Shown: positions 3,487 to 26,234 of the stretch, in pieces | How positions within the stretch are numbered: position 1 is the first letter of the stretch | Layout of the letters: each line of letters begins with the position of its first letter | Assembly: GCF_004010195.1 (NCBI RefSeq) | Contig: NC_057718.1 | Location: 10,308,476-10,341,205, forward strand | Reading direction: 5' to 3' | From: Chiloscyllium plagiosum | Lineage: Eukaryota | DNA length: 32,730 nt | The notes under the pieces: model-generated | Seen by the model: only the letters and a program-made list of their open reading frames with translations | Database searches by the model: none | Told to the model about the DNA's origin: nothing | Position numbers and translations under genes: made by a program

Positions 3487-3610
3487 CACTGATGAAGGAG
3501 CAGGGCTCCAAAAGCTAGTACTTCCAAATAAACCTGCTGGACTAGAACCTGGTGTTGTGTGATTTTTAACTTTATCAACCCCAACCCAACACCTGCACCT
3601 CCACATCATG
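3487..3610 (+). mobile_element. Short Penelope-derived element (family A) with degenerate hammerhead, inserted in a CR1 remnant
   Basis: CTGATGA-A-GGAGC-AGG-GCTCC-AAAA-GC-TA followed by aaataaacctg..aacctggtgttgtgtgattttt, which is shared with the copies at about 11490, 16360 and 21810. Confidence 0.7.
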
Positions 3611-5106: not shown

Positions 5107-5302
5107 ATGTTTAAGTGCGGACTCGCCTTCCCTCGCTGTAAATGGATCCTGCCTTTGCTGCTGCTCCTCGCTATCATCTTCGACATCATCGCACTGGCGG
5201 CTAGCTCCGGCTGGGTGGACTCCAAGTATCACTATGCCTCCCTGTGGGAACAGTTCAGGGGCAGGGACCCCAGCTGGGAATCCACCTCCCTCATGGAATA
5301 CG
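5107..5302 (+). CDS. PERP: PERP coding exon 1 (aa 1-65; TM1 and first extracellular loop)
   Basis: GCCATG start; [45 protein letters not shown] matches the PERP N-terminus; G|GTAAGG donor, phase 1. Confidence 0.96.
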
Positions 5303-5469
5303 GTAAGGAGAGGCGATCGGCTGGGAAGGGAGGGACATAATACACACAAGGAGGGAGGGAGGAGAGAAAAGGATCAGAGAGAGAAATAACACGAGGGAGA
5401 GAGGGAGTTGGTGGAAAAAAGCGGAGAGAGGAAGAACAAGGTGTGAGAAAATAGGAAGGAAGGATGGAC

Positions 5470-5600
5470 AGAGTGTGAGGGGAGAGGAGTGAGGGGAGAG
5501 GAGCGAGGGGTGGAGAGTGTGAGGGGAGAGGAGTGAGGGGAGAGGAGCGAGGGGTGGAGAGTGTGAGGGGAGAGGAGCGAGGGGTGGAGAGTGTGAGGGG
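5470..5600 (+). repeat. G/A-rich minisatellite (about 15/30-bp units, gagtgtgaggggagaggagcgaggggtgga)
   Basis: Tandem units are directly visible; they are followed by an assembly gap. Confidence 0.85.
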
Positions 5601-5633
5601 TTCGGGGCACTGGCGAAGAAGTGGGGTGAGTCT

Positions 5634-5816
5634 NNNNNNNNNNNNNNNNNNNNNNNNNNNNNNNNNNNNNNNNNNNNNNNNNNNNNNNNNNNNNNNNNNN
5701 NNNNNNNNNNNNNNNNNNNNNNNNNNNNNNNNNNNNNNNNNNNNNNNNNNNNNNNNNNNNNNNNNNNNNNNNNNNNNNNNNNNNNNNNNNNNNNNNNNNN
5801 NNNNNNNNNNNNNNNN
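5634..5816. other. Assembly gap (183 N)
   Basis: Run of N. Confidence 1.
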
Positions 5817-7339
5817 AGAGCAGGGGGGCAGAGAGTGTGGGGAGAACAGAAAAGGGGAGAAATGGAGTAGGGAAAAGAATGTAGGCAACTGAGTCAAGCT
5901 GGAAGAAAGTTTAAATGGGAGAGGAAGATAGAGAAAGTGAGATTAAACTGAGAGGGAGGAGTGAAGAACTGAGAGAAGCGAACAAGAAATATCGAGTGTG
6001 GAGGAACCACAGAAAGGGAGAGGAAAGTAAGGCAGAGAATAGAAAGAAAATGTGAAAGTCGACACAAGATCAAAACAAAACCACACAAAAAAAAATCAGA
6101 AGAAAAAAGTGGTAAAAGGAAATGGGGGTGGGAGAAGGCAGTGAATTAATGAAAGAGATGGTGAAGAGGTCAGCGAAGAAGGTGAGAAACTGACTGAGAC
6201 AACAACATTAAAGGACAATCAGAAAGAGCCAGAGCTGAAAATGAAAGAAAAATCAGGTCATGAGGCAGTGAAGAAAAGAGATGGAGAGAGTACCAGGGGT
6301 CAAATGAAAGAGAACAAGAGGAAACATGAAAGTGAGGCAGACACAAGCAAAAATCTGAGAGGAGGGAGAGATGCAGGCAAGATGACTCAGAAAGGCAGTG
6401 AAAAGAAAATAGGTCTGTATGTGATAGAAACAATATGAGCGAAGCAGATCAAAGGGTGTGAGTGAGGACAGCGAGAGCAAAAATGTAAACGGACAAAGAG
6501 AGGGTGTGTGCAGAGGAGAAATAGATAGAGCAGAGAAGACATGTTGCAAAACGTAAAAGAGAGAGCAGTCAGAAGATGCATAAATTATCAAGTAAGAACA
6601 CAAGTCAGTTTCTGATGCCAAGTTTAATTGAAAACTAATCCAGTGCTTTCCTCCATTTTACTTTTTGGTTTGAATGTTGTCTGAAGCAGATATCAACTGT
6701 TGTCAGTAGAAGCCTGGCCAACTGACTGCCTACATAGTACATCTGTTAATAATACGCTCTAACACCGACACTGCAGTTCACTCCCTAACAGAGTCTTTAC
6801 TTCATGCAGCAGAATTAGAATGAAGCAACCTCCCGCCACTGACAGGACATCCATAACATTTAAAAAAGAATCCTTCAATAGGAAGAGAAAAATTGAGCAG
6901 AGACAGAAATCTGGTGAGGAGATTGCATGTACAGTCACAGAAAATGTGGGCCTTAGATAGGGAAAGGGAAATGAAATTGGCTTGGGAGAGGATTAAACTA
7001 GGAAAGAGAGATAGTGATGAGTCGGAAGTACATGGGAAGACGACTAGAATAGGGTGAGGTGAAATCATTTGGTAAATTTGAAGTTTGGGATTGTGAAGGC
7101 TGTACTTGAAGCTACTGGGAGACAGTATAGTCTGACAGCAACAGCAAACTTTTAACATAGTCCAAGGCACTTCACAGGAGAAATTTTAGCACTAGACCAC
7201 ATAAGGCAGTACTGAACCAGATGACCAGAAGCCTGGTCACAGAGGTAGATTCTGAGGGGCATCTTAAAAGAAAGAGGGGTATGGGGAAGGATTAACAGAG
7301 CTTAGAGCCAGGGTAGTTAAAACACAACTGTCAACTATG

Positions 7340-7900
7340 GGTTGCTGTACAGAACTTTGGTTAGGCCACAGTTGGAGTGTGTGTGCAGTTCTAGTCACAC
7401 CACACTGTAGGAAGAATGTAATAACACCAGACAAGGTGTAGAGGATATTCACCAGAAACGTTGTCTGAGATGGAGCATTCCAGAGAAACTGGATAAGCTC
7501 AGGTTGGTTTTTTTTAGAGCAGGAAAGGTTGCAGGGGGTGCCTGCTAGAGATGTGTAAGATTATGAGGGGCATGGACAGAGTGGATAGAACGCAGCTGTT
7601 AGTTGAAGGGTCAATAACAAAGTGCATAATTTTAAATTGAACGGCAGGAGGTTTAGTGGGGACTTAAGGATAAAAAGAATTCACCCAGACGATGATGAGA
7701 ATCTGAAATGCACTGCCTGGGAGGGTAGTGGAGATGCGAAGCCTCAAACCTTTAAAATGTATGTGGATGAACACTTGTCATAACATTCAAGGTTACAGGC
7801 CAAGTGCTGGAAAGTGGGACTAGTATAGGTTTAGAGTACAGTTTGTCAGTACAGACTTGATGGGCCAAAGGTCCTCTTCTATATGGATCTGTGATTCTAT
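7340..7900 (+). mobile_element. Decayed CR1 LINE 3' fragment
   Basis: ttggttaggccacagttggagtg..gtgcagttc..attatgaggggcatggacag..gggactag collinear with 500-1070. Confidence 0.8.
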
Positions 7901-8544
7901 TACAGGTATATTGATACGATCGCAGACATAGGGAGAGGCAAGACCACGGATGCAACACATAGGAGGGTGGAAAAAAAAGAGTCTGAGAAAGGAGACAGTG
8001 ACCGAGGAAAGTAAAAATTAGAGTGAGATAAAGAGAGGCAAAGAGGAGGGGGAGAAAGTAAGTTGTGAAAAAACAGAATGGAAAGATAAAACTGTTGTCT
8101 GATAAATGGGATCAAATGTAACACAGTACAAGTTAATCGGAATTTATGTGCCATTTTTAGAATGCTATAGGCACCTCTGTTACATCATAAGACCCACAGG
8201 AGGTTGGTCAGCGAAGATGAATCTGGCGGTGAGAGATGGACAGAAATTAGAAATGGAGAGGGTGGGAAGGTGAAATGAAAGGAAAAATGGAAAGAGAGAA
8301 AGCGATGGGAGACTGGTATGACACTTTTGGGTCCGACTTGAAAGGGGAAATTACATCCAGGAGTTTTCTATTAGAACCTTTTCCTCAGTGCAGCAGTGAC
8401 TACACATTTTGATGTTGTGATAGGTGCTAAATAAATGCAAAAGGTTCTTTCTCTCATTTCATCTCATTCCTGATCACGCGCACTTGTTGTTGTTCTCAAC
8501 ACCAGTGAAAGCGTTGACCATGTGTAAGTATTTCTGCTTTTCAA

Positions 8545-9125
8545 GAATGGGATTCAAAGTAGACAGGCAGGAGGCTAGAAGAACACAGCAAGTTAGGCAG
8601 CATCAGGAGGTGGAGGAGTCGCTGTTTCAGGTGTAACCTTTCTTCAGGACTGGGGGTGTGTGTAAGGGGAGATGCAGATAAAGGGGGTGGCGGGGGCAGG
8701 GTGGTGAAGTGGGGATAGGTGAAGACAGGCAGAGGGTATGACCTGGTTGGTCAATGGGAGGGATGAATCAGATTGGTGGCAGCGAGGAGTGGAAGGGATG
8801 GGGAGAGGCTAGGAAGAGAGTCAGGGGATGGGGAGGGAGGTTATTTGAAATTGGAGAACTCAGTGTTGAGTCCTCAGGGCTGTAGGGTGCCCAGGCAGAA
8901 GATAGGTGTTGTTCTTCAATAGGAGCTGTTTGTTTTGGCAATGGAGGAGGCCAAGGATGGTCATGTCAGAAAGGGAATGGTTGGGGGAATTGAAATGGCT
9001 GGTGAATGGGAGGTCCGGTCAGCTCCTGTGGACCCAGCTGCGATGCTCAGTGAGCTGTTCCCTAAGTTTACCTTCGGTCTCCCCAATGTAGAGAAGACCA
9101 CATCAAGAGCACCTGATGCATGTGT
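8545..9125 (-). mobile_element. Penelope-like retroelement fragment (GIY-YIG endonuclease C-terminal part plus terminal repeat)
   Basis: The minus strand reads ctctacattggggagaccgaaggtaaacttagggaacagctcactgagcat = LYIGETEGKLREQLTEH, then HFNSP..; a degenerate hammerhead lies at 8617-8651. Confidence 0.8.
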
Positions 9126-9582
9126 TTCAAGGATGGGATGGCGTGTGAAACATGTTCGCTGCACAACCCAATGAAAAAAAGGAATTCTACTTGGCTATTG
9201 TGAACAAATTTATTTTATCTCTTTGCAAAATAATTGACCAAGTGGAGCCGTGATGTGTTAGAGAAGACATAGGAGGAGTAGGCCATTCAAACCCTTGTAG
9301 AGTGATGCCATACAATAGAAGGTGGCTATTTGCCCCATTGTGCCTGTACTGTTCCGTCATTTGAGCAGTTTCTGTGCCGATTCCATGAGTTGTTAACACT
9401 ACCTCGCACATGGTACTCAGTCTCCCAGACTGAGAGGATCTTGAGTTGTTTTGAATCTGGGTACATTGTAGAATTAGCTAGTCTCAGGGTGGAGTTGTTA
9501 AATATTTGTGACTGACTAATGTGGTAGAAATACTTAAATGACGTGTGTGTTTAGTGTGTGAGCTTACTGGGTGGAAAGCACA

Positions 9583-9601
9583 GTGTGTGTGTGTGTGTGT
9601 G
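9583..9601. repeat. (GT)9 microsatellite
   Basis: Directly visible. Confidence 0.9.
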
Positions 9602-10559
9602 GTACTTCTCTCGGTACTTCAACATGTCAGCCTACATGGCCAGTACAGACACTATGGGCCAAATGGCCTCCTCCTGTGCTATAACACTTCGGTGATGTCA
9701 AGTTTAAGTCTTCGGAGTGTGGCTATGGGTGAACTCTCAATTTCAGTTATAAGGCAAGAGTTCTCCTCATTCTTTCATGGGATGTGAGTGTCATTTGGAA
9801 GACCACCATTTGTTGCCCATCCCTAATTGCCCTCGAATTCAGTGTTTTGTTCGGCCGTTTCAAAGGGCAATTATGGTCAACCACAGCTTTGCCCTCCGGG
9901 CCAAGTCCAGCATACTAGTGACCTCCAGAGAGAGAGTGATTTAAGTGGATCTCATTAAAATCTATTTATTCCCCTTTCAGTGTTAGCCACCATGGTTGAT
10001 CTATGGTGTCAGTATTGGCACAGAACTCATTACGATATTTGTGTTATATTCATTGACCCTTGGCTAACAACGAGGTCAAAGGATGTTTGGGAGTAGGCAG
10101 GAAATAACATTACAATTGTGACCACAATCAGATCATCCATGATTTTATTTAATGGTCACAAGGAGTGAATGACCTAATCCTGCTATTAATTTATTTTTCA
10201 TATATCTTTATGGCATAGAGGGTCTCGTTGACATAGCTAAGAGGCATGATGCCCTCACATCGGTAAGCACATTAAATAAAAGTGACGATCAATTGAGCAG
10301 TGGGACCGCACAGGTTGAAGGCCTGAGACAGCAAGCCTAGACACTAGTTTCTGTCTCAATACCGCCCTTACCTCTGGGCACTCCAGACTATTTCATATGA
10401 TTCCTAAGATACAAGTTTGACAAGTTTGGAAATCACTTCCTGATTCAATTCTTCGCTAATTTGAAGGCCTTTGTTCTTTTGGGAATGTTGCAAAGTTGAG
10501 TGAAGGTTTCCTGTCTCCACAAACAATTGCAGTACAAGTTTGGACAAAAATCATTTTGG

Positions 10560-11040
10560 TTCAAAAATCACAACTCTGGGTGTTCTTATACAAGGAGGTG
10601 AACAGTAAGCACATAGGAAGGCAAATAAAATATTGTCTGTTTTTCTGCAAGGTGAATGGAATGCAAAAGTAGGGAAGTCTGATTTACCTGCACAGGGTTT
10701 TCCTGAGACCACAACGGGACGACTGTGACTAGCTCCTGTACACCTTATTTAAGGTGGAATATGCTGAATTCTAAGCAGTTCAAAGAAGGTTCACAAGTTT
10801 GATCCTTTGACTTGGTCTTACGGGAAAATGTTGAACGTATACTCTGTGGGCTTTAGAATGAGAGGCGATCTTAGTGAAACTAGAAGATCCTGTGGAGCTA
10901 GACAAGGTGGATGTTGAAAGATTGTGTCCCCTTATAGGAAAACTGGGGACACGGTTCCAAAGTGAAGAGTAAATTGTTTCGTACAGGAAACTCCCTGAGA
11001 GATGATAATCTACGATGCTCTCTCCATCGTGGACATTGGA
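10560..11040 (+). mobile_element. Old, decayed CR1 LINE fragment (continues at about 11660-11775 after insertions)
   Basis: gcagttcaaagaaggttcacaag..gaatgagaggcgatcttagtgaaac..gacaaggtggatg motifs of the CR1 ORF2 3' region. Confidence 0.65.
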
Positions 11041-11056
11041 CTATCAAATATGTAAA

Positions 11057-11463
11057 AGGTAAAAACAAGGATTGCAGATGCCACTGGGGAGACTAGACGC
11101 CTTCTCACAGAGCGCTTTAGGAAACATCTCCGGGACACCCACACCTCTACATTGGGGAGACTGGACGCCTCCTAGCAGAGCACTTTAGGGAACATCTCTG
11201 GGACACCCGCACCAATCAACCCCACCGCCCCTGTGGCCCAACATTTCAACTCCCCCTCCCACTCAGCCAAGGACATGGAGGTCCTGGGCCTCCTTCACCG
11301 CTGCTCACTCACCACCCGACGCCTGGAGGAAGAACGCCTCATCTTCCACCTCAGAACACTTCAACCCCAGGGCATNNNNNNNNNNNNNNNNNNNNNNNNN
11401 TTTCCTGCTCCTCGGATGCTGCCTGACCTGCTGTGCTTTTCCAGCACCACTCTAATCTAGCCC
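11057..11463 (+). mobile_element. Penelope-like element, 5'-truncated, GIY-YIG region, with 16-bp target-site duplication
   Basis: Translation LYIGETGRLLAEHFREHLWDTRTNQPHRPVAQHFNSPSHS..LEEERLIFHLRTLQPQG; flanking direct repeat ctatcaaatatgtaaa at 11041-11056 and 11464-11479; contains the gap 11376-11400. Confidence 0.88.
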
Positions 11464-11487
11464 CTATCAAATATGTAAAGGCATGAG

Positions 11488-11653
11488 ATAAAGTTAAAAA
11501 CCACACAAGACAAAGGAGCAGTACTTCGAAAGCTCATACTTCCAAATAAATTCAACTATAACCTGGTGTGGTGTGATTTTTAACTGTATCTCAGGCCTGA
11601 ACATATTTGATGAACTTTGTCCACTCCAGTCCAACACTGGCACCTCCACATCA
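11488..11653 (+). mobile_element. Degenerate family-A short Penelope-derived element
   Basis: aaggagcagtacttcgaaagctc..ccaaataaa..aacctggtgtggtgtgattttt..ccagtccaacactggcacctccacatca, similar to 3495-3610. Confidence 0.7.
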
Positions 11654-12541
11654 GACCTGAGATAGACAGATGTTTAAACTTTAGGGGAATCAAGGAACAG
11701 GCAGAAAAGTTGAGGCTAATCTCTGGTCAGTCTTGAGGAATGGAGGGGCTGAATGGCCTATTCCTGTTTCCTATACTAACTTTCCATGACCTCTACTGCC
11801 AGCCTACCTGTACCAGATCTGATTGGGACAAAATTGTGTTGGAGTGCAATTCCATATTTCTCCTTCTCTTCAGGCTCTCTCCTCCCTCTGTACTTCATTA
11901 CCTGCTGGTGGTAAATATCTGGGAATTTACTTTTCTTTTAGCTGCTTAGTTCAGGCAGACAGAAGCTGGAGTCATCCATTTGGTAGTACAGCAGTAAGAG
12001 CAGGGAGTTGGGCAAGAGAATAGCATCTCTCTAAATGAAGCTTTCAACAATTGGGAAGTCTGACAACAGTGTCCTATTCTGGAACTTGGAATAATTACTG
12101 CACGTTCGCTGCAACAGCAGAAGAAGACTTTTGAAGATAAAGCACTTTTAAGTTTTGAAAGGCTCTTGCCAACGTAGATGTAGAAAGGATGTCTCTGCTT
12201 CCAGGAAAGGCCAGAAATAGTCACAAACATATGATAATTGGTAAAAAAAATCCAGTTGGGAATTTGGGGAAAATTCTTTCCACATGCTCACCAAATTCCA
12301 TGTAATTCCTTCCTACAGGGAGTGGTTGAGGCAGATAACATGGGAGCACTTCAGGTGAAGCTGAGAGTGTATCAAGTTCTGAATATGGGTCTCCACAGAT
12401 GCTCCCAGACCAGCTGAGAATTTCCAGTGATTTCTGTTTATGTTTGAGAAAGTTATTACTGACGGTTAAATAGAGTAAAGTCGTAGAAAATTCATGTACA
12501 TAACAAACACTGATCATAAAGCTTTTTCTTGTACTGTGGAT

Positions 12542-12989
12542 TGACAGTGATTGTAACGAGGTCAATCAGATGGACTTTGTGAAATATGAGTTCCCTGATT
12601 GGGGCTGTTAATCTGGCCCAATCAGGGAGCTCTGGCTGACAGATAAAAACAAGAGTATCCCCCCTTCACTGTTTGATCACACAGCATTGCCCTTTTGTGA
12701 AGGGCACTGCTTGTCACTGGCCACTCAGGTGTTTTCCTATCTTCCTGGTGGTGGAAATTGAATAAAGATTCGTGCACCTTGTGTCTCTCACTGTGTAAGG
12801 AAAAAAAAATGTTTGATCACACAGCATTGCCTTTTGTGAAGGGCACTGCTTCAAAAAAAAACAGGAGTATCAGAGGTTCCATTCCCTCTCAGAGCTGGCT
12901 CTGAAGGAGCTGGATCAGTGCAAGAACTTGCCATTTATAAATAAAGGGTGACTTGGTGACAGGATACCGGCCTCTGTGGAGTTATTTCA
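12542..12989 (+). mobile_element. Solo LTR-like element containing a nested insertion (12660-12856)
   Basis: Ends in ..gttatttCA with an internal AATAAA; second homologous copy at 28001-28197. Confidence 0.6.
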
Positions 12990-13514
12990 TAATCTACGTA
13001 CATTGAAGGTAAAGTGTAAAAGGCAGGATTAATAATGATGAGCAGAGAAGCCTTGGTGTGCACAGGTCATTAAAGCTGGCTGTGCAAGTCAGTAAATTTC
13101 AATGAAGGCAAGTGAAATCCTTAATTGCATAGTTACAGTAATTTACATCTCTATAGCAAAAGGTGTCTACACAAAAGGTAGCCAGAGAAACAGAAGAAGA
13201 TGATATCATGAAAGGTACCAGGTATGTAAAGGCAAAATGTAGAGAGGAACATTGAATATTAGAAGCCTTCTAGGTGGGCAGCAATTGGCTTATTGTGGTT
13301 AGCTTTGGCCAGTTCTTCCAAGAAGGATATAGAGCAAATGGATAAATACAATGGAGCATCGTTAGGGCATTCACGGGAGTGTGGAGTTATAGTACGGAAG
13401 TCAAACATTAGACGTTGGAGTATTTATTTGCAAGTGTGGAAAGTTGGTGATCTGATGGAGAAGTCACACACACCCAATACGTTGTTTAGGATAAACAGTG
13501 ACAGATTGCTAGAA

Positions 13515-13975
13515 GAAGGATGTTGTCAAACTCGAGAGGGTGCAGAAGAGATTTACGAGGATGTTGTTGGAGTTGGAGGGTTTGAGCTATAGGAAGAACC
13601 TAAATAGGCTGGGGCGGTTTATCTGGAGCATCAGGGGCTGAGCGCTGACCTTATAGAAGTTTATAAAATCATGAGGGGCATAGATACGGTAAATAGCCAA
13701 GGTATTTTTCCTTGGATAGGGGAATCCAAAACTAGAGGGCATAGTTTTAAGATGAGAGGGGAAAGGTTTAAAAGAGAACTAAGGGGCAACTTTGTCACAT
13801 AGAGGGTGGTACATGTATGGAATGTGGTGGGGCTGGTACAATGATAACATTTAAAAGAAATCTGAATGGGTACATGAATAGGAAGGGCTTAGAGGGGCAT
13901 AGGCCAAATGCTGGCAAATGGGACTAGACGGGTTGGACTGAAGGGTCTGTTTCTGTACTTACAACCCTATGACAC
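13515..13975 (+). mobile_element. CR1/HER1 LINE 3' fragment
   Basis: Collinear with 558-1070 (gatgttgtcaaactcgagagggtgcagaagagatttacgaggatgttg..). Confidence 0.85.
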
Positions 13976-14084
13976 TGCTTGGAGAGATGGTACTAACTTA
14001 AGATAATTGCATATGCAATTAAATGAAAAGTTAGAAATATACATAAAAGGGATCAGTCACATGCAAATCATCAACAAGGCATGA

Positions 14085-14545
14085 GTCAGGATAGAATACT
14101 GCCCACTTGCCTGGATGAGTGCAGCTCTAACAATACTTAAGGAGATTGACATCATCCAGGAGAAAGCAGCCTGCTTGATTGTCACCACATCCACTGTTTC
14201 CACCCCTGACGCTTAGTAGCAGCAGTGTGTACCACCTACAAGATGCACTGCAGAAATTCACCAAAGATCTTAGACAGCGCCTTCAAAACTTACTACCAGT
14301 ACCATCTAGAAGGACAAGGGTAGCAGGTACATGGGAACACCATCACCACCTGCAAGTTCCTCTCCAGGTCACTCACCATACTGACTTAGAAATATATTGC
14401 TGCTTCTTCAGTATCTCTGGTCAAAATCCTGGGATTCCTTTCCTAACAGCATTATATGTCTACTGACAGCACATGGATTGCAACAGTTCAAGTAAGCAGC
14501 TCACCATCACCTTCTGCAGGGTAACTAGGGATAGACAATAAATGA
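14085..14545 (+). mobile_element. LINE 3' end remnant (second family)
   Basis: gtcaggatagaatactgcccacttgcctggatgagtgcagctc..gcagctcaccatcaccttc..caataaatg; reverse-complement copies at about 3780-4710 and a partial copy at about 29870-30030. Confidence 0.65.
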
Positions 14546-14825
14546 CATCGCATAGGAACACGCTAGTGGATTCGATGGGTCCATTGAACTGCTTTGGTGT
14601 TGGTACGATACTGATTCTATCCTCTTTCCATTAGTAAGAGAGAGGGTAAAACTGAGGAAGGAGCTAACTGCTGTCATGAGAGAGGATGCGAAACAACATA
14701 ATTTAGATGATTCTGGTTCTCAGAACTTACACTGACGAGAAAAACACGTTATTTCTTTTACAAAGTGGAACCTAATTCAGGTTTTCAACATTGTGAAAGG
14801 CTTAAAAATATTGCCAAAACCAATT

Positions 14826-15340
14826 CAAGACTTGCATTTATGTAGTGCCTTTCACAATCGTAGGATGTGAAAGCCAGTTAGCAACTTTACACCACAGCAG
14901 TAGCTCACTCTAATCAGCCAATTTGCTCACAGAAAGCTCGCTGGAACAAACAGATCAGGGGCAGGAGTAGGCCATTCAGCCCTGCACTACCATACAATAA
15001 AATCATGGCTGACCTGCTGGTGACCTCAACTTCATATTTTAAGTTATCCCCTCATTGTAATACTTATTAGACCATCTGTTTTTGTGATGCTGGCTGAAGA
15101 ATTACTATTGGCCAGTACACAAGGGATGGCTTTCATTGTCATCTTCACAATAGGGATCTTTTAGACCCACCCAACAGGTCAGGAAGGATCTCCCCTTGAT
15201 GGTTCATCAGATGGATAGCACCACCGTCAGTATCCATAAAGGGCATCAGCCTAGATCACAGTAGCCAGGTCTCTGAGTGGGATTTGAACCTACAAAGTTC
15301 TGACTCAAAAGGGAGAGTGTTACCCGCTGAACCACACTGA
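14826..15340 (-). mobile_element. DeuSINE (SacSINE1/AmnSINE1-like) relic, interrupted
   Basis: gacttgcattttatgtagtgcctttcac..ccaatttgctcacag..tctgtttttgtgatg..gggatcttt..tgggatttgaacc..gctgaaccac is the reverse of a tRNA head plus Deu-like domain. Confidence 0.55.
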
Positions 15341-16359
15341 GGGATAGGCTCAGACTCTCTGGAATTCAATTTAAGGACTTGGAAAGCAAAGGTAATAACA
15401 GGCATGGTATAAAACACCAGGGAAGAACATCAAATAGTTGAAGCATTAGGAGACAAGAAGACTGAGGGTTGTGGTGAGAAGGTGGAGATGGTACATATCA
15501 AAATGGGATAGACTAGATTTGCCACATGATAGCAATGATGCAAAGAATAATTGAGGAATGTGGACTTTAGCTAAATTCCATAGTGTTTCATTATTGGAGT
15601 GACCCCAATATTAAATGTTCAAAATAGTTGCACAGAGTAACCACGATGTGTCATATTGTTTCCTGTCAATTGCAGGATTGGTTAACCCACAGGAAAGAGA
15701 GAGTTGAGATAAATGGGTTATTTTTCAGCATGATAAACAGCGGAGTGCCACAGGATCACTCGATTACAATATACATTTGTGACTTGGATGGGGGAGGAGA
15801 AAGAATTGTAACCAAATTTGCTGATGATACAAAAATGCATAGGAAAGCAAGTTGTATTTTGGACACAAGGCTCTTTTAAATAAAAGGGATATAAATAGGT
15901 CAAATGAGTGGTCAAAAAAATCAGCCGATAATGTACAATGTAGGAAAATGTGAAGTCGCCTACTTTATTTTGAAAGATAGAAAAGCAGAATGTTAATTAA
16001 ATATGGTGAGACTACAGAATACTGTGGGATTTAGGTGTCTTTGTATATGAATCTCAATCTTAACATTGTAGGAGCAGTGAGTACACAGGAAGGTAAATGG
16101 TTTAAGTTGGTCCTTATTGCTAGTGGAATGGCTTATAAAAGTAAGGAATTCTTGCTACACCTTTACAGGTAAATGGATGACCATGTAGTTTTAGTTTCCT
16201 TACTTAAGAAGGGGTGTGTTGCATTGAAAACAGTTCACTGAGCTAAGTCCTGGGATAAAAGGCTAAGCTTGTAATATAAAGCTGAGCAGGTTGAGCCTAT
16301 ACTCCTTGGAGTTTAAAAGAATGGTTGGTGATCTTATTGAAACATTCAGAGGGGGCCTG

Positions 16360-16560
16360 ATGATGTGAAGGTGCCAGTGTTGGACTGGATTGGACAATCT
16401 CAGAAATCACATGACACCAGGTTGTAGTCCAACAGATCTATTCAAAGCCACGAGCTTTCGGAGCTCTGCTCCTTCATCAGGTGACAGTGCTCTGAAAGTT
16501 TTTGATTCTAAATAAACCTGTTGGTCTATAACCTGATGTTGTGTGACTTCTGACTTTGTC
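16360..16560. mobile_element. Palindromic family-A Penelope-derived element
   Basis: Imperfect inverted arms at about 16399-16468 and 16485-16553 flank the hammerhead core. Confidence 0.75.
16449..16483 (-). ncRNA. Minimal type-I hammerhead ribozyme motif (Penelope-associated)
   Basis: Minus strand: CAC-CUGAUGA-A-GGAGC-AGA-GCUCC-GAAA-GC-UC|GUG; all core nucleotides are present and stems I and II pair. Activity has not been shown. Confidence 0.72.
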
Positions 16561-17636
16561 AGATGTGAACCAGAGAAGATGTTTCTTCTCGTTGGTGAAT
16601 CTAGAACGAGTGGTCGCAGTTTAAAAATAAGGGGAGTCCCATTTAAGTAAATGAGGAATTTCTTCTGAGGATCATTCAACTTTGGGCAGGACCGTGGGGG
16701 CCAGATCATTGATTATATTCAAGGTGGAGTTAGACAGTTTTTAAGTTCATGAGAGTTGAGGGTTATGGGGACAGGCAGGAAGGTGGAGTTAAGGCCACAA
16801 TCAGAAGAGCCATGATCTTACTAAATGCCCTTTGAGCTTGCTTCACCACTGTCCTGCTTCTTTCTGATGATCTTGTGTAGATTGAAGCCAGAAACCAACC
16901 AACAAACAGTTGTTCGTTTAGAATAATCTGATGCATTTTGGAGATGGTCCCTTACCACCATCAAGGTCAGAGTGAGTCAGACTGCGGTCTGATAACAAAT
17001 TCTGTTTGGCAGGTGTGTTTACTGTACAAACTGTCCACCCTCGCTGCATTGTCTGTCTGCCATTCTTTTATCATCAGTTCTGTAGCTTTATGTTGGTAAT
17101 CTTTTTCCATGTGGGTGCTATTTCTGAATACTCGTGGGTTTTTAATTCAAGAGAGGAAAATGTCAGCATTTGTTCATTCCAAACCCAAAAAGAAACAAAC
17201 CTATTTTTAAATACAAAAGGTTAGTTCTTAGGTCGGGAGAAATGAAACACTTTCTGAAGTTTAAAACTAGCTTGGATCGAACAAGTGATAAAGCGAGTGA
17301 TGAGGATGTGGAAGTGCACTGCCTGAGACTGTGGTGAAGGCTGGTTCAACTGTGGCTTTCAAAAAGGTTCTGGGGAAAATTCTCCACAGAGATGAGATTT
17401 TAGGGTTGTATGGAAAGATAAGCGAGTGAGACTGTCTAAGTCGCTCTTGTGGAGAACTAGCACTGGACACGGAAGGAGTGGGATGGGGAGATGGAGGATG
17501 GAAGCGAGACCTGTCTCCAAAGAGCTTGTACTGCAGTGATGGGCTGAATAGTCTCTATCTCTGCCATGGATAAGAGGATTTAATTGTGCAGTTTCCATTT
17601 CAGAACGCTCCTGTTCATCAGCTGGTAAGCTGAAAC

Positions 17637-17935
17637 GGGGTGGCAGGGTGTCTCGGTGGTTAGCACTGCTGCCTCACAGCAACAGGGAGCTGGGTTCAAT
17701 TTCAGCCTCGGGTAACCGTCAGTGTGGAATGTGCATACTCTCCCGGGGTCTCCTCCAGATGCTTTGGTTTTCTTCCACGGTCCCAAGATGTGCAGGCTAG
17801 ATAGATTAGCCATGGGAAATGTAGGGTTATGGGGATAAGATAAGGGGGGGTGAGTCTTTGTGGGATGCTCTTCAGAGGGTCAGTGTGGACTTAATGGGCC
17901 AAATGGCCTGCATCTCCACTGTAGGGATTCTATGA
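17637..17935 (+). mobile_element. HE1-like V-SINE, diverged copy
   Basis: ggtggttagcactgctgcctcacagc..gggttcaat..cccaagatgtgcaggctag..gattctatgat. Confidence 0.8.
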
Positions 17936-18384
17936 TATGGTTAAACGGGAATTCTCCCCTCTCAGTTGTTGGGCCCTTTGCAGTCGTTGCAAACACTGGC
18001 CTAGTAATGGAGTGGTGTTAGTACAGACACTCACTATCTCTCTACCACAAGAGGAGAAGAAAATATTTGGGGAATGTGAATCACTGTTGTTGAGCAAGCC
18101 TTCATATCAGGTGGCAGCAGAGGGAAGAGCAGACACTGGGTGTCGGAATTTGATCCTAAATGACTTCTGAGCAAACAAGTGTTGGGAATTATTAACTTAC
18201 AAAAGCCAGGGCTCACAGTGTGCGATTCTACCCCATCTTCTCAGTAATTCCAGAATTTTCCAGAATATCCCTTTCTGTTTGTAGACTGAAAGCAGATTTT
18301 TCCATGTTTACTTTGGATTTAATGTACTACACTGATTCACTCTCTCCCCTCCATTTCGTACCCCTAAACTCACTTCTTAAAAAA

Positions 18385-18940
18385 TTCATTCATGGGATGT
18401 GGGCGTCACTGACTGGGCCAGTTCAAAGGGCAGTTAAGGGTCAACCACATTGCTGTGGGTCTGGAGTCGCATGTAGGCCAGACCGGGTAAGGATGGCAGT
18501 TTCCTTCCCTAAAGAACACAGGAGGTTTTTCCCCTGACAATCGACAATGAATTCATGGTCATCATTAGATATTTATCAAATTCAAATTCCACCATCTGCT
18601 GAGGCAGGGCCCCCGAAACATTACCACAGTCTCTGGATTATTAATCTAGTGATAATACCATGAGGCCATCACTTCCTTGTTCAATTAATATGTTAAGAAT
18701 ATAAAGCTAGTCTCCGTAATATTGACCAAAAAACTATCGTAGGATGTTGGGACAATCCATCTGGTTCACTAATGCCCCTTAAGGATGGAAATCTTCTGTC
18801 CTTACCCAGTCTGTCCTGTATGTGACTCCAGACCACGATACTATGGTTGGCTCCTAACTGCCCTCTGAAATTGCTGAGCAAAAATACTCAGTTCAATGAA
18901 ATTCGGGACTGGGGAGTTAAGGCTTGCCAACATAAATGAA
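18385..18940. mobile_element. Two oppositely oriented copies of a second SINE family (18385-18670 minus; about 18690-18940 plus)
   Basis: gtcaaccacattgctgtgggtctggagtcgcatgtaggccagacc and its reverse complement; the same family occurs at about 3190-3350, 24140-24310 and 29395-29720. Confidence 0.6.
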
Positions 18941-19031
18941 ATAACCTGTTTTTTTTAAATTATGCATTGGGGACATCCTGTGGCAATGTAAATGCAGTAA
19001 GTCTATTTTTTTAAATCAATCTATTCTTAAT

Positions 19032-19355
19032 GGGTGGCACAATGGCTCAGTGGTTAGCAGACTGCCTCACAGCCCGGGACCCGGGTTCAATTCCCGCCTC
19101 AGGCAACTGTCTGTGGAGTTTGCACACAGTTTCTCCCCGTGTCTGCGTGGGTTTCCTCTGGGTGCTCCGGTTTCCTCCCACAGTCCAAAGATGTGCAGGT
19201 TAGGTGAATTGGCCATGCTAAATTGCCCATAGTGTTAGGTGCATTAGTCAGGGGTAAATGTAGGGGAATGGGACTGGGTGGGTTGCTTTTCGGAGGTTCG
19301 GTGTGGACTTGTTGGGATGAAGGCCGGTTTCCACACTCTAGGGAATCTAAACTAA
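19032..19355 (+). mobile_element. HE1-like V-SINE, near full length
   Basis: tRNA head (tggctcagtggttagca..ggttcaattcc), V-domain and aatctaa tail; possible 7-bp TSD tcttaat (19025-19031 / 19356-19362). Confidence 0.9.
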
Positions 19356-19689
19356 TCTTAATTTTAAAGACCACTATCAGATTTTCTAAGAGCCCCTTGA
19401 ACATAGCCCTGGTGTCAGTGCTGCACTGAGTGAGGGGAGCAGTACTGTGTACAGGGTGATTTATGGCTTTGTCATGAGTCACACTAAGACAAGTTTACAG
19501 TTTGAAAGGGCGTCTCTGTGTGAGGGAGCTGCTGGGTAGCTACAACTGCTGTGCTGTGACTTGGTTCACAATCTTCTAAACTTACGAAACACCTTCAGTA
19601 TTGTGACACCGCCCTTTTGCACAGATTGAGAGAGATCATTTTACCTGGGCACACCTTGTACTAACAATGTTTCCCACCTCCTATGCGAA

Positions 19690-20030
19690 ATGACTTGCGT
19701 TTACCTAGCACCTTTGCTAACCACCCAAAGTTATTTTACATCCAATGAACTACTTTTTTGAAGAACAGTCACTGTTGTAATGTAGGAAAGGGCAGCAACC
19801 GTTTGCACACTGCACGCTCTCACTAACAGCAGTGTAATAATTACCACATAGTCTGTGGCAGTGATGTTGATTGAGGGATAAATATTGTGCCTAGGGTAGC
19901 AGGGAGAAAATCTCTGGATTTCTTTTAAACAATCCCGCGGGACGTTTTACATCCATCTGAGTGACCAGATGGGACATCCAGTTAATTGAGAAAGGCAGCA
20001 CCTCTGACAGTGCAGCACTCACACTGTACT
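19690..20030 (-). mobile_element. DeuSINE-like relic (best-preserved copy)
   Basis: ccaatgaactacttttt..cactgttgtaatgtaggaaa..gtgatgttgattgagggataaatattg..gcacctctgacagtgcagcactc. Confidence 0.6.
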
Positions 20031-20031
20031 C

Positions 20032-20116
20032 CTCGGATGCTGCCTGAACTGCTATGTTCTTCCAGCACCACTAATCCAAAATCTGGTTTCCAGCATCTGC
20101 AGTCATTGTTTTTACC
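20032..20116 (+). mobile_element. 85-bp family-B Penelope terminal fragment with 8-bp TSD
   Basis: gatgctgcctgaactgct..ccagcatctgcagtcattgtttttacc flanked by ctgtactc (20024-20031 / 20117-20124). Confidence 0.75.
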
Positions 20117-20158
20117 CTGTACTCAAATGGCCAGGTCAGCCTTAAGAATGTTTTTTTG

Positions 20159-20373
20159 TTAGATTAGTGTGGAAACAGGCCCTTCGGCCCAACAAGTCCA
20201 CACTGACCCTCCGAAGAGCAACCCACCCAGACCCATTCCCCTACATTTACCCCTTCACCTAACACTATGGTCAGTTTAGCATGGCCAATTTACCTAGCCT
20301 GCACATTTTTGGACTGTGGGAGGAAACCGGAGCACCTGGAGGAAACCCACGCAGACACAGGGAGAATGTGCAA
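20159..20373 (-). mobile_element. 5'-truncated HE1-like V-SINE
   Basis: Reverse complement of the 3' two-thirds of 19032-19355. Confidence 0.88.
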
Positions 20374-20894
20374 ATGTTCTTGAATCTCGGGAGTGGAGCA
20401 TGAATTCGTGGCTTTATTATTTAACGGTGGAAGGTCAACCCATTAAGCCCATGTCTGGTATCTGACCATAAATAACAATTAGGAGCAGGAGTTGACCATT
20501 CAGCTCCTCAAGCCTGTCCCGCCAGATGATACCGGTGGCCTCAACACCACTTTCCTGCTCGCTCCTTATAACCTGTGACTCCCCCTTAGCAAACCAATCT
20601 AGCTCAGCTGTGTCTCTCATCAATGACCCAGCTTCTGCCCCTCTCTGGGGGAAAGAATTGCAAAGACTAACGACCGGCTGATGGAATGCCTTTCTCTCCA
20701 AATGGGAGGTCCCTTCTTCTGAAACAGAGCACCCCAGTTCTAGATTCCGCTATGAGGGAAAACATCTTCTCAGCCTCTGTCAAGCCTCCTCAGAATTTGA
20801 ATTCTTTCAACAAGATCATGCCCCTCCCATTCTCCAAAATTTCAGTAGGTTCAGATCCAACTTCTGAACACATCCGTGTCACCTCAGGAACTAG

Positions 20895-21181
20895 GGGATA
20901 GTGAGGACTGCAGATGCTGGAGACTCAGAGTCGATAGATTGTGGAGCTGGAAAAGGAACAGCAGGTCAGGCAGCATCTGCGGAGCAAGAGAGTCAACGTT
21001 TCAGGCAGGACCCTTCATCAGTGCTCCTGATCAGGAGGAGGAAGGTGGGAGGAAGGGGTGGGGAGGGGTGGAGGAGGAGAAGGAGTAGGGCGGAGGAGGA
21101 AGTGGGCAGGAGAAAGGTTAGGCCTGAAGTCTTGACTGTCTTGCCCCTCAGATGCTGCCTGACCTGCTGTTCCTTTTCCAT
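20895..21181. mobile_element. Palindromic family-B Penelope-derived element with 12-bp TSD, inserted in a minus-strand CR1 remnant
   Basis: Perfect 32-bp inverted repeat at 20948-20979 / 21149-21180; TSD ctcaggaactag at 20883-20894 / 21182-21193; hammerhead core at 20991-21027 (minus). Confidence 0.8.
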
Positions 21182-21804
21182 CTCAGGAACTAGTCAAATG
21201 AGCCTTTTCTGAATTGCTAATGCAATTGGAGCCTTGCTTAAGTAAAGAGAGCTAAACTGTCGACAGTTCCCTCAGTGCAGTCTTACTAAGACCCACTAAT
21301 ACTGTTCGGAATATTGCTTGGTTCACTGGCAGCCCACGTTTGTTTGAAGTATTCCCTTTTTCAACCCTGCTGTCCGAAATTCAGCCTCCATCCACGTGTC
21401 ATCCATTATCCAACAGCATGTCCTCTGCAGTATTCCCAGTTTGTCTCTCTCTGCCCACTGAGAGGAGTGAGATTATAGGGAAGTGGCCTGTGCAGTTGGT
21501 GTAGGAAGGCGAGGTAGGCTTTATTATAATGGCAAATCACTGTGGCTGGTCACTATGCTAGAATATCTGATGCATTCTGGGGTGTGTTGGGTAGTCACCA
21601 GTCCTCCTTACTGATGCCACCTGGGGAAGGATGCCCGTAAAACTGTTGTGGCGGAAGCTAGTCTCAATCTTGATGACCAGAAAATAGGTTTATTGCATAT
21701 TGCTTAGTAATGAGATACATTACATCTGGGAAAAATGATGGTCTCCTCTGAGACAATTTGGCTCAATTTAAGATCAAACGTGTGTTACTATTTTAGTCAG
21801 ATGG

Positions 21805-22128
21805 AGCATGACACTGGGTCATAATCCACCAGGTTTATTTAAAATCACAAGCTTTCAGATCACTGCTCCTTTGTTACTTGATGATGGAGCAGCGGTCTGA
21901 AAGCTTGTCATTTTAAATAAATCTGTTGGACTGTAACCTGATGTTATGTGACTTCTGATTTTGTTCAGAGGAGAAAGTGAGGTCTGCAGATGCTGGAGAT
22001 CAGAGATGGAAATGTGTTGCTGGAAAAGCGCAGCAGGTCAGGCAGCATCTAGGGAACAGGAGAATCGACGTTTCGGGCATTAGCCCTTCTCTGATTTTGT
22101 TCACCCCAGTTCAACACCGGGACCTCCT
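21805..22128. mobile_element. Palindromic family-A element with a nested 122-bp family-B insertion (21968-22089)
   Basis: Inverted arms around about 21872; the nested insert is flanked by tctgattttgttca (21954-21967 / 22090-22103). Confidence 0.8.
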
Positions 22129-22563
22129 TATTATGGTTACTATTTTAGCTTTGTACTGTTAACTATTTACTGAAACATAATACACATTCTTGTGAGGATG
22201 TAGGGACTGGTAGGACACAATTGAGAAGTGCATAGCTGCTTCCCTCTGGAACAGTCTGTGGGTGGTGCATAGCTTGTGAAGACAGTTAACCCTTTCAGGT
22301 TCTAACTGCCTCATACAATGGATCTGGCTTCTATTTTGCAGCTCACTCAGAAGACAGACTGCACTCTCAGAGAAATAAAAGCCTCAATGGCTGCCTGGTG
22401 CATCGTAAGCTGTGAAAGGTGCTACATAAATGCAACTATCTCTCTCTTCAACCAACATCTTGTGACCAGGGTGCTCTGGCAACACCTACAGCTAAATGGA
22501 GTAAATAGAGGGAAACTGTTGCCGCTTGTAAAAGGAAGAAGAAGAGGGCAGATTTAAAGTGAT

Positions 22564-23784
22564 GTGCAAAAGTAGTGCGGATGAAGTGGGAAAAAACCTT
22601 TTTCACACAGTGAGCAGTTTGGATCTGGAAAGCTCTGCCTGGAAATGTGGTGGAGGCAGGTTCATTTGAGGCACTGAAAGGTGATGAATGTTCGCTTCCA
22701 CTGAAATAGTGTGCAAGGTTTAGAGGGAGAGAGCTGAAGATTTGCACAAGGTAATTGTGCTAATTTGAAGAGCCAGCACAGGAAAGATGGGCCAAAGGGA
22801 CTGTTCCTGCTCAGAATGACTTTGTCTTCAGTGGATACTAGAGCAGTGCAGGTAAACCAGAGACTAGGTGGTCCCATACCTGTGTCTTAATTGCAGGAAA
22901 ATGTGAGGAAGCAGCAGGAATTCCAGGTGGAGAATGCAGTGGGAAGGAATGGGAGATGGTGCAGAGAACAGCAAGGAAGAATGAAGAGGGGAGGGACCAT
23001 GGTGCTATTGATAACTATGCAACCACAATACTATATATGGATGAGTACAAATAGGAGGAGTATTTGGTCTGGGAGCAACCTCTCTCTGTCAGGCTTTCCT
23101 ATTGAGCAGCTGCATAGAGGATTGCCTCCCAGTCCCGTGGGAGAAAGCACAAAGAGCTCTCAGGTTACCATGCCAAACGACCATTCTCACCCGCGTGGTT
23201 AGACTTTAAATGGGTCTTTCATTTCAAAGCATGGACCAGTGCCATTTATAGATCCCAGAGCTGAGAAATTTTTTTTGAGAGCTGGTGTGAGACCACACAT
23301 GCAGACGTGGTGTCAAGTGGTGAAACAATGACCTGCTTCCCAACTCTCTCTCTCAAAGAAAGTAAAATTCCCTTTTCCTTAAAACAGCCATTTCCCTTCC
23401 CTCAGCACAAGGCCATGTCTCTCTTCTCTGGTGGAAGTAAGCAATCCAGGGCCAATCTTAAAGAAAGACTGTCTCCCCCCCCATCATTCAGTCCTTTTGC
23501 TTTGCAGTTTATGGGAGATTTCTGTGTGCAGTTTTCCTCCATTAGAAGAAGTAATGGGTCGTAGAATGTTAATAACACAAAATGAGGCTTCCTAACCTTT
23601 CAGGGTCTCTGTAAGCGCAACTCAGTGCAAAAGTAGTGCGGATGAAGTGGGAAAAACCTTTTTCACACAGTGAGCAGTTTGGATCTGGAAAGCTCTGCCT
23701 GGAAATGTGGTGGAGGCAGGTTCATTTGAGGCACTGAAAGGTGATGAATGTTCGCTTCCACTGAAATAGTGTGCAAGGTTTAGA
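22564..23784 (+). repeat. Near-identical 160-bp direct repeat (22564-22724 and 23625-23784)
   Basis: The copies differ only by one A in a homopolymer, by visual comparison. Confidence 0.95.
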
Positions 23785-24358
23785 CTCCTGTCTAGCCTCA
23801 GAACTTCACAAATCCTTCCCCTTCAAGCCATTTACTTTTATTTTGAGACCCTCTCTCAAATCTCTCCAACTTTTCTTCTCCAGGGAGAACAGATCCACCT
23901 TCTCCATTTCATATCCTTGTAATTAAAGTCGCTGATCCCAGGGACCATTCTTATAAATCTTCTGTACACCATCTCCAAAGCCTTCTTAAAATGTGATGCC
24001 CAGAACTGGACACAACACTCTAGTGTTTCATAAAAGTTCACCTTAAAATCCTTGCTTTTCTACTCTGTCCTTCTCTTTGTCAAGCGGTGTCTTTATTAAC
24101 CACTTTCTCGACCCACCCTGGTACGTTTTTGAGAAACGTTTGTTTATGGAATGAGGGTGTCATTGGCTAAGCTACCATTTCTTGCCCATCCCTAATCGCC
24201 CAGAGAGCAGTTAAGAGTCAACCACGTTGCTGTGGGTCTGGAGTCACATGTAGGCCAGACCAGGTAAGGATGGCAAATTTCCTCCCCTAAAGGACAACAG
24301 TGAACCAGATGTGTTTTCTTTTTAATAATAAATGACATTGGTCCTTTCATTCTACCAG

Positions 24359-24496
24359 GATGGGCGAAAGCTACTGCAGCATTGCTGATAATCGGTTGTA
24401 TCCTGTTGATCATTTGCTTCATCCTGTCCATCTTTGCTCTTTGCAAGGAGCAATCGGGTCTGCTGAGAGTGATTGGTATCATCCTCTTTGTTGCTG
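24359..24496 (+). CDS. PERP: PERP coding exon 2 (TM2 to start of TM3)
   Basis: tcctttcattctaccAG acceptor; (G)WAKATAALLIIGCILLIICFILSIFALCKEQSGLLRVIGIILFVA; G|GTAAGT donor; 138 nt, phase 1/1. Confidence 0.95.
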
Positions 24497-25998
24497 GTAA
24501 GTCTTGCTGTTCGGTAAATACCTCGCTCCTTCCCCAGGGCCCTCACTTGTTGACTGGACTCAAACTCAGTGAGTCTGCAACAGACCCAGATTAAACACGG
24601 GGTTTTCCCAAACCAGGTGTCATTCTCAAATTACTCCTATTGTAGGAGCAGGAGTGGCCATTCAGCTCACCCTGTCATTCTAGATCGTGGATGACCATCT
24701 ACCTCAACAGCATTTTCCTGCACTTTATCAACACATCTCTTGACTTCCTTAATAAGTAGAATTCTGTCATTCTCTGACTTGAAGTTAATGTATAACTGAA
24801 TTCTCTACCCCATAGGATTGTGAAAGCTTATCACCCTCTGCGGAAGTCATTCATCCTCATCTCAGCCCTAAGTAACTTGCCTTTTGTTCTGAGATCGAGT
24901 AATTATAATTACAATTCAGAATATTAATTTCCAGAAGTAAAATGTACCTAAATCGCACAATGACTGTTTCCACATCTGCCAAGCCAGCTTGTTCCATAGT
25001 TTGATCACTCACTCAGTAAGGGAGTGTTTCCTCCGAGTAATCTTCGTACCCCTTTCAGCTGACACAGTTATACTACAATAATTCAGTTGGATGACCAGTG
25101 TTAATGTGTGGCAAAACATGGCACCTCTGCTGTGCACAGCAAGAACCCACAGATGCACTGTGTAAAGAATGAGCAGCTAGTTACAGGTAGCATTGATGAA
25201 AGCAAGGGATATCAAAATAAAAAAGGAACCCTACTACTCCTCAACTAGAACCCCAAAGTTTGCTCCTTTTCACATCCAGCAAATTTTCATCATACTGGGG
25301 ATTCTTGGCTTATGTCCGGCACTTTGGTCTACATACAGATGGATCAATGCAGGTTTTCCTTCACTCCCCTCCAAGGAAAGTGTTGTACAATCCTGTTCAT
25401 TCGGAAAATATTTTTAATAAAGAACATGAGGAACAGGAGGGGGCCATCTGGACCCACGAATCTACTTTGTCACTCAATAAAATCCTAACTGATAGTTTAC
25501 CTCAACTCCACTTTTCTGCCCTACCCCCAGGACTTTTAATTCTCCAAAAATCCTTCGATCTCAGTATTCAACACACTCCATGACTGAGCATCGACTATTC
25601 TCTGGGAAAGGGAGTTCCAAAGGAATTTCCATCACCCTCTGAGTCCAAAATGGCTGACCCCTTATCCACAGATTGATCAATTTAATTGAATGGTGACATC
25701 CAGAATCAATTGACCAGTGTGAATGTGGAACTTGATTGCTATATTTAAATCGGAATGCAATTCAAATTCCTCACTCTGAAAATACCGTCCCATCAATGAA
25801 TCTGGTGATATTTCTGGTTATGGAAATGGATCGGTGAGCTTGCATCCGGTAACAATGAAGCCAAGTGTTGAGTTTGAGTTCAAAACTCAATTCAAAACTC
25901 ACCCCACCTGTAAAAAGGTTAAAATCGGGCTAATCCCGGATAGCTGATGTATTGGGTGTTCTTTTTTCCTTCCCTCTCTAACCATGTTTTCTTCTGCA

Positions 25999-26023
25999 CC
26001 CCCCCCCCCCCCCCCCCCCCCCC
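25999..26023 (+). repeat. (C)25 homopolymer forming the polypyrimidine tract of intron 2
   Basis: Directly precedes the AG at 26024-26025. Confidence 0.9.
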
Positions 26024-26025
26024 AG

Positions 26026-26234
26026 TCCTCTTCCAGTTCATCGCCCTCATCGTGTACCCAGTCAATTTCACCAAGACCCTCATCAAAAATGGCAACTATG
26101 AGTACAGCTGGAGCTACGGCTTTGGGTGGGGGGCCACCATACTGATGATCGGCTGTGGCATTTTCTTCTGCTGCCTTCCCAAGTACGAAGACGAACTCTA
26201 CGGTCAAGCTAAGCCCATCTACATCTACGGCTGA
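26026..26234 (+). CDS. PERP: PERP coding exon 3 (TM3, second loop, TM4, C-terminal tail, stop)
   Basis: (V)LFQFIALIVYPVNFT..YEYSWSYGFGWGATILMIGCGIFFCCLPKYEDELYGQAKPIYIYG*; the YPV, W-YGFGW and FFCCLP-YED motifs are PERP-diagnostic, and the frame is consistent with exon 2. Confidence 0.96.

Follow-up and report, generated by a model that had tools for sequence, protein, structure and literature searches.

A minimal hammerhead ribozyme motif with an intact catalytic core lies on the minus strand of the window, the whole stretch of 32,730 nucleotides of Chiloscyllium plagiosum DNA that was analyzed (contig NC_057718.1, positions 10,308,476 to 10,341,205). Judged by its letters, the motif carries every sequence feature of a Penelope-type minimal hammerhead. 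We consider it very probable that it belongs to a neutrally drifting relic of a Penelope-like element, in which the hammerhead has stayed intact by luck and is probably silent in place.

Architecture of the hammerhead motif

All of the letters that the first-pass annotation had quoted for the ribozyme were found on the minus strand at 16485-16447. The cut site that it predicted, 16452|16451 on the minus strand, stood, whereas the span that it gave, 16449-16483, was too narrow, the full motif being two bases wider on each side (Table 1). The core contains CUGANGA and GAAA, with U16.1 and an H at position 17; an extra base between A9 and G10.1, a G10.1-C11.1 pair and stem II are also present. 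The vestigial stem III is palindromic and reads AGCU here. The extra nucleotide between A9 and G10.1, which the annotation had also pointed out, is a described hallmark of such motifs (PMC4209133), and an NUH rule has been given for the cleavage-site triplet (PMC3884650).

A descriptor combining the core, the extra base, a stem II of at least 4 pairs with G-C closing, the palindrome and a stem I of at least 3 pairs matched once in the window and not at all in 300 Markov-1 resamples. In the 3.56-Gb genome, the exact core with stem II and GAAAGCT occurred in 6,405 copies, and the reversed control pattern in none. A chance origin of the motif is therefore ruled out. The covariance-model check that had been proposed gave a negative answer: an Rfam scan of the window at E<=5 returned no hammerhead family match, and the motif does not fit the canonical type I models.

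The descriptor found no second intact motif in the window, and the core was broken or missing in all five other arms of the hammerhead family. Further insertions of the family lie at 3480-3609, 11513-11653 and 21797-21975 (two subfamily A-like single arms and one subfamily B inverted pair), all with broken cores. Decayed hammerhead-like cores of this and other Penelope-type families were seen on the minus strand at 21021-20999, 17621-17598, 8647-8625, 29252-29230 and 4561-4536; in these five, mostly G12 or the preceding C is altered, and none passes the intact descriptor. At 11085-11451, a fragment reading HLYIGETGR, the GIY-YIG-like end of a different Penelope-like family, is followed by its own terminal repeat; Pfam gave no match on this fragment.

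Table 1. Coordinates of the hammerhead motif, its carrier and the host gene in the window
Feature	Position	Strand	Description
Minimal type I hammerhead motif	16447..16485	minus	stem I of 5 bp, core, extra A, stem II of 5 bp, AGCU palindrome, C17
Stem I	16485-16481 (5' strand) with 16451-16447 (3' strand)	minus	5 pairs, one U-G
Core C3-A9	16480-16474	minus	
Extra A	16473	minus	
Stem II	16472-16468 with 16464-16460	minus	5 Watson-Crick pairs, 3-nt loop
G12-A15.1	16459-16456	minus	
AGCU palindrome	16456-16453	minus	
C17	16452	minus	
Direct arm	16360..16484	minus	5'-truncated 3' end (pseudo-LTR) of a Penelope-like element, subfamily B; starts 4 nt before C3
Optional AC-rich tail, about 33 nt	16360..16392	minus	on the direct arm only; family copies end with or without it
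Inverted arm	16485..16560	plus	second, shorter copy of the same end; starts inside stem II; without catalytic core and without tail
Long hairpin of the two arms	16393..16560	either	71% complementary over 168 nt
Possible 8-nt target-site duplication (tentative)	16362..16369, repeat 16562-16569	plus	overlaps the tail end
Host gene, PMP22/claudin group	5107..26234	plus	three coding exons

The carrier insertion

The motif is the centre of a head-to-head pair, about 200 bp long, of truncated Penelope-like retroelement ends. The direct arm agrees with the subfamily B majority in 112 of 130 aligned columns and with subfamily A in 103 of 132; the inverted arm agrees with them in 67 of 76 and 63 of 76, respectively. 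Assignment to subfamily A was rejected, since it scores below subfamily B for both arms. This copy stands about 14% from its subfamily majority, and loose alignment ends were seen at 16560, the outer end of the tail-less inverted arm. The plus-strand fold of the 205-nt element was predicted at -89.6 kcal/mol (z -7.6), with 0 of 200 shuffles as low; the host's own strand has the hairpin only and no hammerhead core.

Three traits, namely 5' truncation, an inverted copy alongside and a facultative tail (in the sense of PMC8557442 and PMC11167929), were seen at this locus and at the family loci that were fetched. This is the form reported for insertions of endonuclease-positive Penelope-like elements, with an optional tail of 30-40 bp (PMC8557442, PMC3846280). 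At position 16368, within the tentative target-site duplication, this copy differs from the family base and agrees with the far flank. The same candidate duplication, the only one here, resembles the tail end at 7 of 8 bases, a likeness that would mean microhomology between target and tail and that, as a single case, could be chance. Duplications of 10-13 nt were judged by eye at other family loci. The element seems to be nested in an older LINE-like fragment (flanks 16270-16357 and 16562-16645), and its right flank matches 32171-32244 and 20700-20771 of the window; a reconstruction of the empty site from paralogous flanks gave no paired matches.

Contigs of three other organisms run from the unique flank into the element with 2-3% difference (15 in 530, 11 in about 570, 10 in 464 and 6 in 260 bases), a comparison that covers flank to arm, the relatives' unique contigs ending inside the arms. 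Since the insertion is common to these three organisms, it predates their split.

The host gene

The coding exons of the host gene begin on the plus strand with an ATG at 5107 and a donor at 5303; exon 2 lies near 24.36-24.50 kb and exon 3 starts from about 26037. The hammerhead element lies inside the first coding intron, 5303 to about 24355, with the motif antisense. Pfam gave a PMP22/claudin-group match for one of the three exons (E 7e-4, below the cut-off), and Atlas leads put the protein in the same group at 0.80-0.89, which weakly suggests that it is a member. The annotation had placed the ribozyme antisense in intron 1 of PERP. The intron, as the first coding one, and the strand both held; the tools reach the PMP22/claudin group only, and the name PERP is a tentative one, given by resemblance. 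The exon layout and the C-terminus fit it.

The family and its source element

A first-look search of the genome gave 7,026 candidates, the best other copies being 77-82% identical. Two subfamilies were distinguished. In A, which accounts for most of one set of 30 loci, 27 of 30 carry A17 and stem I has 3 bp; in B, U17 is present at 30 of 30 loci and stem I has 4 bp. By plain script counts, the fourth pair of stem I is C-C at 18 of 30 loci in subfamily A and U-A at 25 of 30 in subfamily B. A frame opened at the core ATG runs into a stop within ten codons in either subfamily.

A second abundant family of minimal hammerheads has the same shape in different letters, with an ACGU palindrome, a different stem I, a 4-bp stem II and C17; it often adjoins copies of the first family (L044, L045, L051, L054, L068, L072, L080, L081, L086 and L093). 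The architecture of the Penelope-type minimal hammerhead, which the annotation had recognized with its intact core, was confirmed, and it varies with compensation between families. Covariation of the stems across copies, which had been named as a test, appeared as this compensatory variation (pair 4 in A versus B, and the second family), at the level of counts. Among the 6,405 matches, C17 followed by GUG occurred in 104, a rare state in subfamily A. At one locus, L076 (G000:C19:20940487-20940571), an inverted pair has an intact core and C17 in both arms, which shows that they had a single template or underwent conversion. L040 and L041, which lie 3.3 Mb from each other on contig C1, have the insertion and about 570 bases of flank in common at 93% identity, and are a segmental duplication.

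Longer copies run upstream through several hundred non-coding bases into a decayed GIY-YIG-like frame (L012 and L019 in subfamily A, L094 and L105 in subfamily B). In L105, the decayed frame lies about 500 nt upstream of the motif and reads VVY...CRQGC...WYIDET. The end of a 441-aa open frame in L169 matches its peptide at 66% identity (E 2e-37); this open frame contains YIDD and weakly resembles RVT_1 (E 1.7e-4, below the cut-off). A protein query for this coding part gave 16,875 genome candidates. This protein identity is what ties subfamily B to the L169 frame, and L169 may belong to a sister subfamily. Pfam found no GIY-YIG match on the endonuclease-like peptides of L105 and L169, and the GIY-YIG label is a tentative one, by motif resemblance. 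By motifs of this kind the endonuclease end looks Neptune-like, unlike the Poseidon element PAc of the green anole; the linker region of L169, in which a CX2-5CxxC linker would mark Neptune, is out of frame. From these sequences, the motif is placed in the pseudo-LTR of a Penelope-like element.

The 5' ends of the copies were examined in a comparison set made from the first 60 places among 628 matches to a subfamily B flank motif outside the hammerhead, which yielded 61 arms. Upstream of C3, 27 of them start within 15 nt and 12 further away; 11 start inside the motif, 2 at no more than 3 nt from the cut and 7 past it, and the remaining 2 run off the fetched piece. Copies that start at the cut site were thus discarded as a general explanation (2 of 61 arms). 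Because the arms start above the core and not at the cut, cleaved RNA is not the usual template.

The annotation had assigned the ribozyme to a short non-autonomous element. Given the variable junctions and a ladder of 5' ends that reaches into the coding frame, the locus is more plausibly a 5'-truncated insertion of an autonomous-type element. It is very unlikely that the copies form a separate short non-autonomous family, a MITE-like palindrome or a retrozyme, which moves as a 200-bp unit. The copies are indeed short and inverted pairs are very common, 36 of 78 rows of best matches being partial second-strand matches at loci already present; however, junctions and arm lengths vary from copy to copy, the tail occurs on either arm, and the 5' ends extend stepwise from inside the motif to hundreds of bases upstream. 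Retrozymes, moreover, require a tandem array (bioRxiv 10.64898/2026.07.22.740005). Membership among them was rejected, as there is no tandem array at the hammerhead locus and one intact motif in the window.

For the truncated Penelope-like insertion, we infer an old and fixed event, produced by an endonuclease-bearing retrotransposon, probably of the Neptune type. The element protein would have copied only the last 125 nt or so of the RNA, starting at the tail, and a second, shorter copy would then have been placed head to head, the usual insertion form of Penelope-like elements. The hammerhead, as a piece of the pseudo-LTR, would have been carried with it. To go by the literature, its role in the source element would most likely have been slow self-cleavage of tandem transcripts, dependent on dimers or on protein. 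The motif of this copy would have escaped damage by luck while drifting neutrally.

Decay of the core and private substitutions

Of the 61 arms, 43 reach through the motif, and the 18 truncated or gapped arms were excluded from the core counts; the arms lean to low divergence because they were chosen by an exact 31-nt flank. All 11 scored core bases are kept in 7 of the 43. None of the 43 combines an intact core with five stem II pairs, three stem I pairs and the palindrome, yet this copy does, and it is in the upper few per cent for intactness. Core bases outside CpG are kept in 346 of 382 cases versus 855 of 934 for the flank (Fisher p 0.59; 43 arms). Core and flank decay alike, and therefore the family motif is not protected after insertion. 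G12, which is part of a CpG, is still present in 19 of 43 arms. Considering that the genome holds 6,405 exact cores, an intact copy chosen for its intactness needs no selection.

Among the 61 arms, position 17 with its 3' neighbour is UG in 46, CG in 1 and CA in 0, and 85 of the 100 matches listed of 461 subfamily B matches likewise have UG. A true CpG decays both ways, as seen at C11.1-G12 (CG 5, TG 13 and CA 20 of 43); the one-sided pattern at position 17 rules out that C17 is an ancestral CpG which decayed elsewhere. C17 as the mark of a distinct subfamily was also rejected: of 39 other C17-GUG loci with distinct motifs, nearly all have subfamily A flanks, and one (L066) is clearly B. A similar count at N7-G8 in loci L109-L168 gave TG 23, CA 8 and CG 5 of 43, so that part of the source elements had a CpG in the first core box too.

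At pair 5 of stem I, 21 of 30 subfamily B loci have mismatched U-U, and pair 4, as counted above, is mostly U-A. Set against these letters, three features of this copy are private to it and not an inherited design: C17, the wobble in stem I and the fifth pair of that stem. The first two are substitutions, as is the C of the fifth pair; the G of that pair is best assigned to the junction, where the inverted arm supplies it. U17 cleaves more slowly than C17. All four substitutions within the motif are tolerated ones; survival in an intact state with tolerated changes is expected of a copy picked for looking intact, and it is not proof of neutrality.

These substitutions bear on whether the motif is an exapted intronic ribozyme, improved by mutation (U17 to C17 and a longer stem I) and kept by selection to cut an antisense transcript of the host gene. 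That would agree with a copy which is intact where none of the 43 comparison arms is, whose substitutions are all tolerated or helpful, and whose insertion is common to three related organisms. We regard it as extremely unlikely, given that the genome has thousands of equally intact cores and that about 20 of the 100 subfamily B matches listed keep C11.1-G12. The inverted arm, which should mask the motif according to the predicted fold, has been retained, and the tertiary loops typical of efficient host hammerheads (PMC6155905) are absent. Early domestication is extremely improbable as well; here, the improved motif (C17 and the junction-lengthened stem I) in an epithelial-junction gene would act only in RNA from which the inverted arm is missing or has melted away.

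Predicted folding and prospects for cleavage

The folding results are equilibrium predictions. For the bare 39-mer, stems I and II were predicted at a probability of >0.95; with 7 bases added on each side the stem probability went down to 0.04, and in the 205-nt element it was 0.000, with a penalty of 10.9 kcal/mol for the constrained fold. The penalty was 10.0 kcal/mol with the upstream inverted arm alone, the arm transcribed first, and 4.4 kcal/mol with the downstream arm alone (128-nt context without the inverted arm). A swapped dimer was predicted at -23.9 versus -25.6 kcal/mol for two monomers.

On these models, cleavage in place is unlikely, the inverted arm lying directly 5' of the motif and pairing with it. 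The annotation had seen a potentially active self-cleaving RNA; its intact core stands, and activity in place is weakened by the predicted pairing and by the lack of an intact dimer partner in the window. We take the motif to be probably silent because it is on the strand opposite to the host pre-mRNA, no intact partner is near, and the antisense arm is transcribed first and would draw it into the long hairpin. Excised and engineered as a dimer, it might, to judge by the literature, cleave in vitro with about even chances. In published work, a schistosome minimal hammerhead did not cleave as a monomer and cleaved at a low level as a dimer or trimer (PMC4209133). The hammerhead of the anole element required the element's protein for cleavage. 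It was dispensable for in vitro insertion, and no RNA ends were found at its cut site (PMC11167929).

In an RNA sample made up of roughly 2% of a raw single-cell polyA run, 383 reads fell on the element, in both directions and all paralogous. No read matched at >=99% identity or lay in the unique flanks, and no pile-up of ends was seen in this sample. Such paralogous reads say nothing for or against transcription of this locus. None of the sequencing runs containing this stretch is recorded as RNA; one unstranded run, guessed to be RNA and perhaps DNA, covers the intron flanks.

The same data address a conditionally active relic, in which short antisense transcripts that begin in or close to the motif and lack the inverted arm, or the element protein as a chaperone, would allow it to fold and be cut as a dimer with another RNA of the family, with no host function. 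The motif still has its core, stem II, palindrome and a cleavable H17, both stems are predicted to form in the bare 39-mer, and 27 of 61 arms start just upstream of C3, as if template RNA often began there. The protein dependence of the anole hammerhead (PMC11167929) and the abundance of family RNA in the sample point the same way. We nevertheless judge conditional activity unlikely: the 4.4 kcal/mol penalty persists even without the inverted arm, the swapped dimer is predicted to be less stable than two monomers, published dimers cleave poorly (PMC4209133), and the reads were all paralogous with no pile-up of ends.

Comparison with known systems

The motif shares with the minimal hammerheads of Penelope pseudo-LTRs (Cervera and de la Pena 2014, PMC4209133) the type I form without a real stem III, the palindromic 15.1-16.1, the extra base at 9/10.1, the G10.1-C11.1 pair and a short stem I. 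Its family likewise shares with them a distribution mostly as dispersed single copies of truncated elements, pairs on opposite strands and thousands of copies per genome; about 4,000 copies have been given for coelacanth and 9,000 for Xenopus (PMC4209133). Stem II is 5 bp here versus 7-8 in the schistosome example of the same study. Our literature search found no paper devoted to Penelope hammerheads of sharks; no shark is named in the passages of PMC4209133 that were compared, and its supplements may hold shark examples.

With the insertions of endonuclease-positive Penelope-like elements (Craig et al. 2021, PMC8557442; Arkhipova et al. 2013, PMC3846280), the locus shares head-to-head inverted truncated ends, a tail on one arm and a possible short target duplication or microhomology. 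Unlike those insertions, it consists of the two ends alone, about 200 bp without coding sequence. The element PAc (Frangieh et al. 2024, PMC11167929) also has a hammerhead in its pseudo-LTR, and its tail is defined by two reverse-transcription start sites. No RNA ends were reported at its cut site, and likewise only 2 of 61 arms here begin within 3 nt of the cut; its frame starts at stem II and runs on, in contrast to the early stop after the core ATG in this family. The animal non-LTR retrozymes, which have been reported in one cartilaginous fish, are likewise non-coding, with a type I hammerhead and a Penelope pseudo-LTR origin (bioRxiv 10.64898/2026.07.22.740005). They are head-to-tail arrays with at least 2 complete motifs, whereas a head-to-head pair with one motif is found here.

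Significance

The locus alone matters little, being one well-preserved copy among thousands of a described motif. Exaptation, if true, would be a vertebrate case of a retroelement ribozyme recruited by a host gene. The start pattern of the arms, 27 versus 2 of 61, agrees with published work in which uncleaved RNA serves as the template of Penelope-like elements. The intact-looking hammerheads in this genome are survivors of neutral decay, in which G12 is lost quickly via CpG, and intactness alone is therefore not evidence of function.
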